Of a DNA stretch of 64,000 nt, positions 59,188-62,376 are shown one piece after another. Made by a program: the position numbers and the translations under genes. Below the pieces are notes generated by a model. The model was not told the DNA's origin. It saw only the letters and a list, made by a program, of their open reading frames with translations, and searched no databases. The stretch is from Escherichia phage ph0011, in sequence record OP557969.1. The stretch is one strand, 5' to 3'. How positions within the stretch are numbered: the stretch's first letter is position 1; each line of letters starts with the position of its first letter.

Positions 59188-59676
59188 TTATACGGATTCG
59201 ACGATTCGTGCCATCTTTTCCGCTCTAGAAGTGGTTTGTTTATACCAGGTACTATCACGCAATTCTTTACCAGCAGTTTTATAATCAGCATTACCCAATG
59301 CGGTCATTGCTTTTTTAAATTTCAAAACTTTGGCTTTGCCCATTTGGAACACCATCATCCACAAAACACGCTGTACTTGTACTGGTGCAGTCATGCCAAA
59401 TTGCTCATAAATTGATTTTGCGTCATTGTACGCGGCCTGAGCATCTTTAATAAGAAGTTGTTCAGCTTGTTCTTCAGTTAAGCCATTTTTGAAGTTTTCA
59501 CCAGGAAGAACTAAATGACCATAACCAATAGTATCAAGTCCCAAGCTATCTTTATATACCCAAAACTTATCATTTTTAAAATAACCAAGTTTTTTCTGAT
59601 AAGCAATAGTTCCTTCAAATTCTTTGATTTCATTAAAAAATTGCTCATCTGTATTTTTAATTTCCCATTTACTCAT
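59188..59676 (-). CDS. GH24 lysozyme (T4 lysozyme-like)
   Basis: 162 aa; catalytic-region motif EFEGT...DTIGYGH and MMVFQMGKAKV, STWYKQTTSRAEKMARI parallel T4 lysozyme (INMVFQMGE, SRWYNQTPNRAKRV). Confidence 0.8.
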   Translation of the reverse strand: MSKWEIKNTDEQFFNEIKEFEGTIAYQKKLGYFKNDKFWVYKDSLGLDTIGYGHLVLPGENFKNGLTEEQAEQLLIKDAQAAYNDAKSIYEQFGMTAPVQVQRVLWMMVFQMGKAKVLKFKKAMTALGNADYKTAGKELRDSTWYKQTTSRAEKMARIVESV

Positions 59677-59712
59677 AAAGACATCCTTATATTATTTATA
59701 GTACTAAAATAT

Positions 59713-62376
59713 TTATTGACATGCCTCTAAACGACGAGCCATTAATTCAGCACGGCGTGTTGTTTGACGATACCAAGCCGAATTTCGTATTTGAGCAGCA
59801 GCTTGTTTATAGTTTCCTTTGGCTAATTCAGACAACATGGTCTTAAATTTAAGGACACCCCCTTTACCCATCTGGAATACCATTTGACATAGAACTTGTT
59901 GTGCCATGTAAGGAGTTTTCATGTTATATGATGCATAAATTGCCTTAGCATCATAAATTGCTTTACTACTGTCTCTAACAAGCATATCATTGGCTTCTTG
60001 TTCAGTTATACCTGACGAAAAGTTCTCACCGCTAACAATTAAGTGACCGTATCCAATAGTAGGGAATCCACGACTATCTAAGTAACGCCAGAATTTACCA
60101 TTACGGTAATATCCTTTTGCTTGTTGATATTGTATTGTACCCTCATATTCTTTTAATTCCGAAATAAACTGAGCATCACCTGGGACGATTTTCCAATCTA
60201 TTGCTGTTTTATCTACGTTACCAACATTATATGTAGGTTGTTCAACTGGCGTTGATGATACACTTCTACGTTGTGTTCTTCTTTTGCGTGGTACATGTCG
60301 TGAACCACGCTGAGAATAACCAGTCCCAATTGTTTTAATTTTAGTAGTTACTACTAATTCATCACTATCTACTGACGGTTGCACAACTGCTTGCGGTGAC
60401 GATTGATTAGTTGCTTTTCCAGCAATCAAAGTTTTATTAGCTGCATCTGCTCCAATTCCAGTTTGTGATGCATAGAACAATCCCGGATCAACTGAACCAC
60501 TAAACCCAAGTACATTTGCAGACGTTACACGTATTTCAAATTGAATAACACCTTTAGCTTTACCTATAACTTGTCCTTTTTGAACAACATCTTTATTCAA
60601 TAAATCAGTTTGAATATTATAAAATATAGATTTATATCCAGATTTGTGTTGTATTAAAATACCACCATTAGTGATTGCAACAACACCACCATCTGGTGCA
60701 ACAACATCACCTTTGCATTGTATTTCCCATCCAGAACGATCTGCTTTTCCACCGTTTTGTGTTGGAATACCTTTCCCCCAGTAACCATATTGGCGAATTG
60801 TCCCACTACATGGCATATACATATGTAAACCTTCATATGTGATACTATATCCAGTCATTCCAGCATCAGATACCATCAAATCTTGTGTTTGTACTTGTTC
60901 TGTTTCAGGTGTATAGTTAATAAACTGTATAGCTTCAGTTTCTTGAGCTTCTGGAATTTCTGGCGTAACATCATTAGCAGGTTGTGGCTGTACTGGTGAT
61001 TCACTTGAAATCTTCCCACCGCCTTGTCTCGGTGGTTCAACAGTGCTACCATGTTTTTCTGCATTAACCCAAGCAGAAATGTCATGAATGTGTTCATTTA
61101 GACCCGTAGATGGTGTTTTAAAGTTAGGAGCAGTAAATTCAGCAGTCCCGCTGTTTCCTCCACTGTTAACAGTCAATGTTTGACCACCACCGCTAATTAT
61201 TGCTGATGATGAACCAATTAAATTTGCGGAAGTAGAAGCAGATATAGATGCATTTGAACCTGCGGTAATATCAGTACTACTACCACTTTGCATACGCAAT
61301 GATGCAGCAGTAACTAATCGGAGATCTGCACCAGAATTAACAACAACCTGACCACCAACTTTTGCATCAAGTGCACCAATTAAATCCAACTTAGTATTTG
61401 CACCAACACGTGCATTGAAATCTTGACCAGATTCAATATTATATGAACGACCAGCAATCATATTAATATCCTGACCAGCACGAATATTGATATTCTTATC
61501 ACAATGCATATCAATATCACCTTCACCTGTAAATTTTATGCGTGCTGTTCCGTCACGGTTAATTAACAGAACGTCGCCTGTTGCTTCTGACAGTAATAGC
61601 TGTGCACCACTGCGAGTTTTTATAACAACTCCTTCATTTTTACGGGAACCAACACGTGTATCGTTTACTGGGTTATTAAATTGTGTATCCTGATAACCAT
61701 CTGGATCTTGATCCCATGTAGGTGCGGTTAATTCCTCTTCAGTATATCCATCATCGATAATAAAACTATTTCCACGTGGTGACGACATACCATATACAGT
61801 ACTGGTTGTCTGGCGGGTGCTACTGCGATTAGCAAGACCTGCTTCTTCATCATATAAAAGGTTTTGTTTTTTCAAACCAGCAATGATTGGAACGTTTGCA
61901 TACTTATCTTGCATGTCTGTTGTGATTGTGTTACGATCATAATCAGTAACAGGGATAGGCATATCCGTTCCGCTATAACTACTAACTTCAGTTGCCATGC
62001 CTGGAACCATAGTATTCATGCGATGGTCATATACACAACCAATCCAATATGCCTGAAATGTACGTGCCTGTGCGAAAATCACAATAACAGTGCACCCAAC
62101 ATCAGGCGGTACAGCCCAGAATCCATAGCCTTTGGGATATTGACCATATGCATCGGCACTTGGAATACCTGGTGTTTTGCCAGCAAATGGTGACATATAT
62201 GATGCTTCAATCCATGATTCTTTGGAATTTTTATCACTTTGTGAACCTTGTATCCAAACTTTCAATTTTCCTGATTTAGTTGGATCTCTATTATCCATAA
62301 CCGTTGCTAACTGTGGGTAAGATGGGTCAAAACGACCCAACTGTTGTTGTGCATACTTTTTACTTGTATCTGCCAT
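59713..62376 (-). CDS. baseplate hub spike, gp5-like: N-terminal OB domain, beta-helix-like repeats, degenerate M23-like domain, C-terminal GH24 lysozyme
   Basis: 887 aa; N-terminus TVMDNRDPTKSGKLKVWIQGS (gp5/VgrG OB-fold style); C-terminal ~150 aa about half identical by eye to the adjacent free lysozyme; AAGGAA RBS. Confidence 0.75.
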   Translation of the reverse strand: MADTSKKYAQQQLGRFDPSYPQLATVMDNRDPTKSGKLKVWIQGSQSDKNSKESWIEASYMSPFAGKTPGIPSADAYGQYPKGYGFWAVPPDVGCTVIVIFAQARTFQAYWIGCVYDHRMNTMVPGMATEVSSYSGTDMPIPVTDYDRNTITTDMQDKYANVPIIAGLKKQNLLYDEEAGLANRSSTRQTTSTVYGMSSPRGNSFIIDDGYTEEELTAPTWDQDPDGYQDTQFNNPVNDTRVGSRKNEGVVIKTRSGAQLLLSEATGDVLLINRDGTARIKFTGEGDIDMHCDKNINIRAGQDINMIAGRSYNIESGQDFNARVGANTKLDLIGALDAKVGGQVVVNSGADLRLVTAASLRMQSGSSTDITAGSNASISASTSANLIGSSSAIISGGGQTLTVNSGGNSGTAEFTAPNFKTPSTGLNEHIHDISAWVNAEKHGSTVEPPRQGGGKISSESPVQPQPANDVTPEIPEAQETEAIQFINYTPETEQVQTQDLMVSDAGMTGYSITYEGLHMYMPCSGTIRQYGYWGKGIPTQNGGKADRSGWEIQCKGDVVAPDGGVVAITNGGILIQHKSGYKSIFYNIQTDLLNKDVVQKGQVIGKAKGVIQFEIRVTSANVLGFSGSVDPGLFYASQTGIGADAANKTLIAGKATNQSSPQAVVQPSVDSDELVVTTKIKTIGTGYSQRGSRHVPRKRRTQRRSVSSTPVEQPTYNVGNVDKTAIDWKIVPGDAQFISELKEYEGTIQYQQAKGYYRNGKFWRYLDSRGFPTIGYGHLIVSGENFSSGITEQEANDMLVRDSSKAIYDAKAIYASYNMKTPYMAQQVLCQMVFQMGKGGVLKFKTMLSELAKGNYKQAAAQIRNSAWYRQTTRRAELMARRLEACQ

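Follow-up and report, generated by a model that had tools for sequence, protein, structure and literature searches.

The locus described here raises the question of why two related GH24 lysozymes lie side by side, one as the last domain of a tail spike and the other as a free-standing gene, how old their relationship is, and what role is left to the peptidase-like segment in the middle of the spike. The window, i.e. the whole 64,000-nucleotide (64-kb) stretch of Escherichia phage ph0011 (sequence record OP557969.1) that was analyzed, probably encodes in this region the central spike with which a jumbo myophage of the Rak2/121Q type (related to Asteriusvirus) pierces the membrane, together with a paralogous small lysozyme. 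The nearest genomes belong to Asteriusvirus, contain both genes and are 87–88% identical to the window at the nucleotide level. A megablast comparison with complete E. coli genomes returned no match, so the window does not derive from a complete RefSeq E. coli replicon. Orthologs of the spike are found in the Rak2-like phages (121Q gp587, RaK2 gp078, CBB_240, phAPEC6 gp241, UE-S1 ORF535 and the GAP32 spike), with sequence identities from 96% to 51%; they match the window spike in length, domain order and neighboring genes, with no architectural difference. Orthologs of the free copy are 121Q gp586, CBB_239, RaK2 ORF073 and LysUE1 (UE-S1 ORF534). Spike orthologs are present in virions by mass spectrometry (MS) (PMC7247149; PMC5259590); the MS analysis of the RaK2 virion missed that phage's own spike (PMC3622015). 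The features of the locus are summarized in Table 1.

Table 1. Features of the spike and lysozyme locus in the window.
Feature	Position	Strand	Basis
Central tail spike gene, 887 aa	59713..62376	(-)	ORF list; 96% identical to UE-S1 ORF535
gp5/VgrG-type OB-fold, aa 23–116	62029..62310	(-)	Pfam Phage_base_V PF04717, 29.6 bits vs cut-off 23.8
Triple-stranded beta-helix needle, ~aa 245–410	61147..61644	(-)	Pfam DUF2345 PF10106, 31.3 bits vs 30.7
Invariant H429-x-H431 motif right behind the beta-helix	61084..61092	(-)	H429 and H431 in 87/87 homologs
Pro/Gln/Glu-rich flexible linker, aa 440–505	60862..61059	(-)	pLDDT <50; variable in alignment
Degenerate LytM domain without Zn ligands, aa 511–650	60427..60846	(-)	Profile, AF2 fold, alignment
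Second linker, aa 651–727, with conserved strand (ELVV..) and basic patch (PRKRRTQRR)	60196..60426	(-)	Homolog alignment
C-terminal GH24 (T4-type) lysozyme domain of the spike, aa 728–887	59716..60195	(-)	Pfam PF00959, 44.8 bits; pLDDT 84–92
Second ATAAATA, overlapping the spike stop codon	59710-59716		Motif scan
T4-late-promoter-like TATAAATA, 17 nt before the start of the free lysozyme gene	59693..59700	(-)	Motif scan
Free-standing GH24 lysozyme gene, 162 aa	59188..59676	(-)	ORF list, BLASTP, Pfam
gp25-like baseplate wedge gene	58779..59174	(-)	Pfam GPW_gp25, 36.1 bits
Terminator-like hairpin after the spike-lysozyme-gp25 unit	58748..58771	(-)	10-bp stem followed by a T-run; pattern match only

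The spike lies in a baseplate neighborhood, with structural genes upstream and gp25-like and gp6-like genes downstream, and the overall gene order is hub-like structural genes, spike, lysozyme, gp25, gp6-like gene and a giant protein. The free lysozyme gene follows the spike gene after 36 nt and is separated from the gp25-like gene by 13 nt. Its downstream neighbor is always a gp25-like gene, and the order is kept in 121Q, UE-S1, RaK2, L004 and L005; RaK2 has an insertion between spike and free lysozyme and retains the adjacency of the free lysozyme to gp25. All domains of the spike are under purifying selection (dN/dS 0.02–0.06), with the highest value within the spike (0.19) in the linker of residues 440–505.

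The N-terminal half of the spike has the gp5/VgrG-type arrangement of an N-terminal OB-fold followed by a triple-stranded beta-helix. The helix region matches the beta-helix of Pseudomonas aeruginosa VgrG1 (PDB code 4uhv, E 1.9e-4) in a phmmer search of the PDB, and AF2 models it as regular, short strands. In T4, the combination of gp5 and gene e likewise pairs an OB-fold/beta-helix spike carrying a GH24 lysozyme with a paralogous free lysozyme of the same genome, and the baseplate context likewise includes homologs of gp25 and gp6. However, the lysozyme of T4 gp5 is placed between the OB-fold and the beta-helix and no LytM domain is present, whereas the order in the window spike is OB-fold, helix, HxH motif, LytM domain and lysozyme. 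The lysozyme domain (residues 728–887) thus lies behind the helix and forms the very C-terminal end of the gp5-like spike, as had been noticed from the sequence.

The HxH motif is a candidate histidine cage that, by analogy, may act as an apex-like, metal-binding clamp of the trimer. An HxH motif typifies the Fe-binding Apex in P2 gpV-type spikes (bioRxiv 10.1101/2023.02.25.529910), and the Apex of P2 gpV and phi92 gp138 (an Fe histidine cage) also has it directly behind the beta-helix. Known Apex motifs are, however, no more than about 15 residues from the C-terminus, where they form the tip, while about 455 residues follow the motif in the window spike. The PDB search with phmmer matched the helix and HxH region to VgrG beta-helices only and to no solved apex structure. 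The window spike also differs from that of T4, whose tip is formed by another polypeptide, the PAAR protein gp5.4. Beyond the motif, conserved columns are found in and around the second linker (G642, L650, V675, G691 and P696), for which AF2 predicts a strand at residues 675–682 and low pLDDT elsewhere. The AF2 monomer of the spike has a pTM of only 0.30, and its C-terminal domains may either go ahead of the tip or, like those of T4 gp5, be folded back against the needle.

The central segment had been proposed, from its spacing, to be an M23/LytM fold that lacks the usual histidine ligands and may be non-catalytic, and this proposal is borne out by the family profile, AF2 and Foldseek comparisons and an alignment of 87 spike homologs. 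A search with the Peptidase_M23 model gave a divided answer: the window segment itself scored 18–23 bits, below the Pfam gathering score of 28.7, but 28 of 30 spike homologs matched PF01551 (best E 7.6e-11). PDB matches of the family profile include LasA, SpoIIQ, DipM and EnvC. The AF2 model of the domain (pLDDT 89) shows the LytM beta-sandwich, and its top 46 Foldseek matches in the PDB are all M23/LytM domains.

Ligand positions were mapped with a MAFFT alignment that included lysostaphin, LytM and the related spike P0094, and with a HMMER alignment to SpoIIQ. At the positions of HxxxD, the catalytic histidine and HxH, the window spike has RSGWE, YN and V-I-Q, respectively, and none of the 87 aligned homologs has the complete set. 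The histidine of HxxxD is replaced by arginine in 71 of 87, the aspartate position is occupied by I, E, T or V, the catalytic histidine position by D, G or N, and the HxH loop is shortened and free of histidine. P0094, on the other hand, keeps the catalytic His/Asp residues that the family of the window spike has lost, in an intact HWGID...YRH...GPHLHLE site. An hhalign comparison of the family profile with a lysostaphin sequence aligned only 29 columns, so that the ligand mapping is based on the MAFFT and HMMER alignments. Because the Zn/catalytic set is missing throughout the 87 family members, the segment is designated a degenerate LytM domain, which from alignment and model is probably non-catalytic; with its zinc site lost, it would not be a conventional metallopeptidase. 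That the domain is nevertheless an active peptidase with non-canonical residues is scarcely credible. The fold is intact, and five of the 87 homologs have histidine at the first ligand position, but the full HxxxD/H/HxH set occurs in 0/87, the HxH loop is about nine residues shorter than that of SpoIIQ, and the ligand columns vary across members with no conserved replacement.

Phage hub, tape-measure and internal proteins, among them the hub proteins of cyanophages, often carry M23 domains, and in the tail-tip protein phi29 gp13 such a domain occurs together with one of lysozyme type. The catalytic His/Asp set is, to our knowledge, retained in phi29 gp13 and in comparable M23 domains of virions. 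The window domain resembles EnvC, NlpD, DipM and SpoIIQ instead, which have an M23 fold without a Zn site and are among its best profile and fold matches. One explanation is that it acts as a regulator of the EnvC/NlpD/DipM type, activating host amidases or lytic transglycosylases, or gating the GH24 domain of the spike. A LytM fold without metal ligands is indeed present, the non-catalytic regulators DipM, EnvC and SpoIIQ are its neighbors in both profile and structure, and it is under strong purifying selection (dN/dS 0.063) despite the missing catalytic site, with W550, H577, E614 and R616 invariant. However, those proteins are cellular regulators or scaffolds, whereas this LytM domain sits in a virion spike; the conserved FE(I)R motif is found in M23 folds generally, and plain peptidoglycan binding or a structural role accounts equally well for the conservation. 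This specific regulatory role is therefore unlikely, and the domain would most likely be, more broadly, a module for docking to peptidoglycan or protein, or for regulation.

Both lysozymes are clear members of the Phage_lysozyme family PF00959, with 44.8 bits for the spike domain and 37.4 bits for the free copy (gathering score 22.3). The 162-aa gene 36 nt downstream is closely related to the spike domain, as had been claimed: in BLASTP, it shares 82 of 159 residues (52%) with residues 728–886 of the spike, with no gaps and an E-value of 4e-58. The equivalents of T4 lysozyme E11, D20 and T26 are E745, D767 and T773 in the spike and E21, D43 and T49 in the free copy, so that the catalytic Glu and Asp are present in both. 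Among spikes, the Glu and Asp are each conserved in 86 of 87 and the Thr in 61 of 87; the whole triad is retained in all 77 free copies. Selection is similarly strong on the two (dN/dS 0.044 for the spike domain, 0.05 for the free copy). With its triad intact, the spike GH24 domain looks functional. Compared to T4, the GH24 domains here have 14 additional residues inserted between their catalytic Glu and Asp.

The sequence-only reading had further taken this similarity as a sign of a recent duplication between the endolysin and the tail lysozyme. Alignment of the two copies upholds paralogy at the protein level (52%, gap-free), but not recency at the DNA level: the codon-aligned copies are 57% identical, with a longest identical run of 9 nt, and third codon positions, at 41.5% identity against 30.6% expected from composition, are near saturation. 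Across 30 contig-matched genomes, in which equal length of the longest contig served as the proxy for pairing the copies, the identity between spike and free lysozymes is 51.2% within genomes and 49.8% between genomes, with no within-genome excess, and the divergence among spikes tracks that among free copies (r 0.76; Mantel test, 0/2000). Both lysozymes are also found in lineages whose spikes are only 37–43% identical to that of the window. The two copies of the window were paired in none of 200 bootstrap trees, and in the full neighbor-joining (NJ) topology 69 free copies form one clade. Since subsampled bootstraps supported neither the deep nodes nor strict monophyly of either paralog set, we rely on the identities, the Mantel test and the full NJ topology. 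A Trp-containing N-terminal extension, present in both paralogs and missing from 39 of 43 outgroup sequences, could be cited along with their gap-free similarity for a recent exchange, but the low DNA identity, the failure of the copies to group by genome and their co-divergence refute it, and such an event is very remote. These sequence comparisons indicate that the free gene is an ancient paralog of the spike muramidase and that the duplication is old.

The two lysozymes might instead have been acquired independently from prophage-type endolysins. Lysozymes of 150 aa from Enterobacterales (annotated Pantoea, Erwinia and Kluyvera) show about 50% identity to the free copy and, like it, carry the insertion that separates the catalytic Glu from the Asp. 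However, the mean identity between spike and free lysozymes (47.8%) exceeds that of either to the outgroup (43.5% for free copies, 39.8% for spikes), and the N-terminal extension common to both paralogs is missing from the nearest prophage-type lysozymes. Independent acquisition is therefore improbable, and descent of both from an old duplication is preferred.

The identification of the free copy as the endolysin is not supported either. The published prediction for the endolysin of Rak2-like phages is a different protein, 121Q gp532 (= CBB_187), with TM, LysM and lysozyme segments (PMC5259590). It is a third paralog, 37% identical to the free copy, and its homolog lies outside the window, within which tblastn detected no third lysozyme. 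Rak2-like phages thus have three GH24 paralogs in distinct contexts: the spike domain, the free copy and the gp532-type protein.

What, then, is the free copy for? It is 95% identical to LysUE1 of Escherichia phage UE-S1, which has been purified and is lytic on E. coli with EDTA; that study treated LysUE1 as a stand-alone lysozyme/endolysin and did not discuss the paralogous spike domain (PMC12805682). The gene has its own candidate late promoter, judged from motif statistics. TATAAATA occurs once in the 64 kb, against 10.5 ± 3.2 expected, and ATAAATA has 13 occurrences (38 expected), most of which lie shortly before a gene start. The late-promoter-like motif is also present in 121Q, and the same motif has been put forward as a late promoter in CBB and GAP32 (PMC5259590). 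Scans for sigma-70 promoters were at or below chance. Programmed read-through or fusion of the two genes was considered separately and is ruled out by the stop codon, the 36-nt spacer with its promoter motif and a separate RBS.

The free lysozyme could be a low-copy part of the virion or baseplate, either a second tail lysozyme or a partner of gp25 or the spike, rather than a lysis enzyme. Its gene lies inside the baseplate operon, always directly upstream of gp25 even in RaK2, its motif suggests late expression like that of structural genes, and another, SAR-like protein is a candidate endolysin (PMC5259590). Against this, a docking domain is not recognizable in the free copy, and it is unreported in the virion proteomes of phAPEC6, where MS lists gp241 but not the free copy (PMC7247149), and of CBB, for which only the spike and gp25 were confirmed as structural (PMC5259590). 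The absence from virion proteomes is weak negative evidence, because the spike of RaK2 was itself missed by MS. In addition, two lineages with otherwise identical baseplate gene order lack the free copy, which is therefore dispensable in some relatives. A virion or baseplate role is thus rather unlikely; the product of the 162-aa gene would most likely be a soluble muramidase made late, at a level independent of the spike with its three copies.

The arrangement of spike and lysozymes is real and has already been described for related phages: the C-terminal lysozyme of the RaK2 spike in 2013 (PMC3622015), and the central M23 match and adjacent free T4-type lysozyme of CBB in 2017 (PMC5259590). 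The window is a new sequence variant of this published Rak2-like hallmark, at 87–88% nucleotide identity to the nearest isolates. The new points are small: the family-wide degeneracy of the LytM domain, the invariant HxH behind the beta-helix and the dedicated late-promoter motif of the free gene.

Taken together, the spike is probably organized like an "evolved VgrG". The OB-fold would dock to the hub, and the trimeric beta-helix would form the needle, closed off by the invariant HxH motif. The flexible linker would then tether two cargo domains, which could be delivered to the periplasm at tail contraction: the zinc-less LytM-fold domain, serving for docking or regulation, and the GH24 muramidase, cutting glycan strands locally to open a passage for the tube. 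In evolved VgrGs of type VI secretion (Vibrio cholerae VgrG3; the pesticin-like VgrG3cp/TssI2; P. aeruginosa VgrG2b), the enzyme is likewise located behind the beta-helix and delivered to the periplasm of the target (PMC9927483, PMC9620997, PMC6899460), so that a C-terminal cell-wall effector is carried on a gp5-like spike as in the window. VgrGs, however, include a gp27-like module and kill rival cells, whereas the window spike belongs to a phage infection device in which the hub is a separate protein.

The lytic activity of LysUE1 was shown in 2025, and this family of free lysozymes is already being explored as antibacterials; knowledge of the three paralogs and their distinct contexts aids the choice and interpretation of such enzymes. 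For the phages themselves, all known members of this large clade retain, under strong purifying selection, a LytM domain that is probably dead as a catalyst. It is quite unlikely that this domain, after injection into the periplasm, mimics EnvC, NlpD or DipM, turning on host wall hydrolases or gating the GH24 domain; if it did, the wall would be breached partly through hijacked host autolysins, and the spike, given a metal cage at its internal HxH, would amount to an "evolved VgrG" of a phage, with tethered cargo behind the tip. An HxH motif in the middle of the spike and not at its end, together with this LytM domain, bears on the way in which contractile tails transport wall-degrading cargo and bring it into action.

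The spike, a free-standing GH24 lysozyme (the free copy) and a gp25-like protein are encoded in succession (see the table below), and are followed downstream by a gp6-like wedge gene and a giant structural gene (Pfam, PHROG). Homologues of the latter product (121Q gp582, phAPEC6 gp245 and CBB_236) have been found in virions; no Pfam match was recorded for it in related contigs. The gene 5' of the spike, whose 749-aa homologue is 121Q gp588, likewise has no Pfam match and may encode a gp27-like hub that partners the spike. Over 3.2 kb, the region shares 87–88.6% DNA identity with the Asteriusvirus jumbo phages UE-S1, 121Q, PBECO4 and phAPEC6, and the UE-S1 orthologues are 96% (spike) and 95% (small lysozyme) identical. 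Exactly 72 deposited phage genomes contain the central region; almost all measure 320–386 kb, and one record is a 110-kb partial. In 121Q, the gp6-like and gp25-like genes are separated by gp584 (positions 4756-5520 of contig L001), which encodes an HNH homing endonuclease and is annotated as intron-associated.

Coordinates of features of the spike-lysozyme locus in the window
Feature	Position	Strand	Remark
Gene 5' of spike	62387-64000	(-)	truncated by window end
Spike gene	59713-62376	(-)	887-aa ORF
Spike H429-x-H431	61084-61092	(-)	directly after beta-helix
Spike aa 773	60058-60060		T4 lysozyme T26 equivalent
TATAAATA	59693-59700	(-)	in 36-nt spacer, 5' of free gene
Free lysozyme gene	59188-59676	(-)	162-aa ORF, 36-nt spacer after spike
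gp25-like baseplate wedge gene	58779-59174	(-)	Pfam/PHROG assignment
Site of 121Q gp584	58677-58778		~100 nt only, with terminator-like hairpin and late-promoter motif
Structural gene	45164-55165	(-)	3333-aa ORF, directly 3' of gp6-like wedge gene
Further ATAAATA sites include	55172-55178, 58733-58739, 37094-37100, 37129-37135

The spike starts with a gp5/VgrG OB-fold (aa 23–116, Pfam) and a beta-helix that matches DUF2345 and is similar to the VgrG1 helix. Since both precede the GH24 domain (residues 728–886), the lysozyme lies at the extreme C-terminus of a gp5-like spike, as the sequence-only reading had described, and its placement differs from that in T4 gp5. The H429-x-H431 motif is invariant in all 87 spike homologues and matches the HxH hallmark of the P2 gpV-type Apex domains, spike tips in which it makes up an Fe histidine cage (bioRxiv 10.1101/2023.02.25.529910). 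In the present protein it is located mid-chain, with ~455 residues C-terminal to it, comprising a Pro/Gln-rich disordered linker (dN/dS 0.19), a degenerate LytM domain, a second linker with a basic patch, and GH24. The AF2 monomer model of the spike has a pTM of 0.30.

The central segment had been proposed to have the spacing of an M23/LytM fold but to lack the His ligands. The window sequence alone remained below the Peptidase_M23 threshold (18–23 bits vs 28.7). Support at the level of the family is strong: 28 of 30 diverse homologues matched PF01551 (best E 7.6e-11), and the family profile matched LasA (3e-7), SpoIIQ (1e-6), DipM (7e-5) and EnvC (0.02) in the PDB. The AF2 model of residues 503–668 has a pLDDT of 89, and each of the first 46 PDB matches of this model in Foldseek was an M23/LytM domain, among them the non-catalytic DipM, EnvC and SpoIIQ. 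The ligand positions were located by comparison with lysostaphin, LytM and P0094, an 815-aa, distantly related spike protein with an intact site. The HxxxD site is RSGWE in the window, with Arg at the His position in 71 of the 87 homologues and Ile, Glu, Thr or Val at the Asp position; the catalytic His of YxH is Asn (Asp, Gly or Asn in the homologues); and the HxH loop, V-I-Q in the window, is shortened and His-free across the family. A complete M23 site was found in none of the 87 homologues (37–91% identity). The segment is a degenerate LytM domain, in line with the proposal, and cannot act as a Zn peptidase. It is nevertheless under strong constraint (dN/dS 0.063 vs 121Q), with W550, G580 and R616 invariant and H577 and E614 near-invariant.

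The free lysozyme aligns with spike residues 728–886 at 52% identity without gaps (E 4e-58), which bears out the claim of a related lysozyme immediately downstream. Both copies pass the Pfam Phage_lysozyme threshold and keep the catalytic Glu and Asp, plus the Thr, in alignment with T4 lysozyme E11/D20/T26 (spike E745/D767/T773; free copy E21/D43/T49). The triad is kept in 77/77 free copies; in spikes, Glu and Asp are each kept in 86/87 and Thr in 61/87. Spike residue 773 is Asp in 19 of 87 spikes, a sign that the catalytic mechanism may be altered, or constraint relaxed, for the virion-borne enzyme in part of the clade. In both GH24 domains, 14 residues are inserted between the catalytic Glu and Asp; 150-aa Enterobacterales lysozymes (annotated Pantoea, Erwinia and Kluyvera proteins) share this insertion.

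The suggestion that this duplication was recent did not hold. The codon-aligned genes are 57% identical, with a longest identical run of 9 nt, and third codon positions are 41.5% identical vs 30.6% expected from composition. For 30 genomes with both paralogues paired by contig, spike-to-free identity within a genome equals that between genomes (51.2% and 49.8%), and spike-to-spike and free-to-free divergences correlate (r 0.76, Mantel 0/2000). A single clade holds 69 free copies in the full NJ tree, and the two window copies paired in 0/200 bootstraps; deep nodes of the lysozyme trees lack resolution. The free gene also occurs in lineages whose spikes are only 37–43% identical to that of the window. 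Together, divergence, co-divergence, tree and lineage distribution show that the duplication is ancient, not recent. Independent capture of the two lysozymes is the alternative; a Trp-containing N-terminal extension (KTAIDW / SKWEI), common to both paralogues and absent from the nearest outgroup lysozymes, favors duplication within the phage lineage. Among contigs of divergent relatives, L002 and L003 have gp25 directly after the spike in an otherwise identical gene order, whereas L004 and L005 keep the free lysozyme; therefore, the gene was lost, or gained, more than once. In RaK2 (L009 5022-6515, ORF074-077), an insert of ~1.8 kb, whose four small hypothetical ORFs include two on the opposite strand, separates the spike from the free lysozyme, which is still directly upstream of gp25.

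The free copy had been termed the endolysin, a role that the CBB authors predict for a third GH24 paralogue of Rak2-like phages (121Q gp532 / CBB_187), which has an N-terminal transmembrane segment and a LysM-like domain (PMC5259590). This paralogue, located outside the window, shares 37% identity with the free copy. LysUE1, the UE-S1 orthologue of the free copy, is lytic in vitro (PMC12805682). Virion proteins listed for phAPEC6 and CBB include the spike, not the free copy (PMC7247149, PMC5259590). The 64 kb contain a single copy of the spacer motif TATAAATA (10.5 ± 3.2 expected), and the same spacer has a second ATAAATA. ATAAATA is threefold depleted in the window (13 copies vs 38 ± 6.6 expected), and nearly all copies precede an RBS and start codon by 15–60 nt; the same motif was proposed as a late promoter for CBB and GAP32 (PMC5259590). 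That the motif is so strongly avoided elsewhere fits a T4-like late promoter recognised by the gp55-like sigma factor of the phage. We infer that the free copy is a late, separately dosed, soluble muramidase, which may act in lysis or at the baseplate.

The spike-lysozyme arrangement itself is an ordinary, published feature of this phage clade: work on RaK2 in 2013 noted the C-terminal lysozyme of the spike and its "very unusual domain composition" (PMC3622015), work on CBB in 2017 described the central M23 match, adjoining free T4-type lysozyme and separate predicted endolysin (PMC5259590), and the activity of the free enzyme was reported in 2025 (PMC12805682). The papers examined made no mention that the LytM metal site is lost throughout the family, that an HxH inside the spike is invariant, that the paralogues have co-diverged, or that the free gene has a late-promoter motif of its own. 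The original observation is confirmed and its interpretation supported in part.

By analogy with T4 gp5 and evolved VgrG spikes, contraction would drive the trimeric spike through the outer membrane, with the cargo domains either in the lead at the tip, the arrangement of evolved VgrGs, or folded back along the needle. The GH24 domain would then cut glycan strands (predicted activity), while the LytM domain would probably dock to peptidoglycan or to a partner; regulation of host or phage hydrolases by the dead domain is speculative. P0094, 26% identical to the spike, combines an intact M23 site (HWGID...YRH...GPHLHLE) with a trypsin-like protease instead of the C-terminal lysozyme, and M23 domains are frequent among phage hub and tape-measure proteins, which suggests that the C-terminal cargo of these spikes is modular and swappable.
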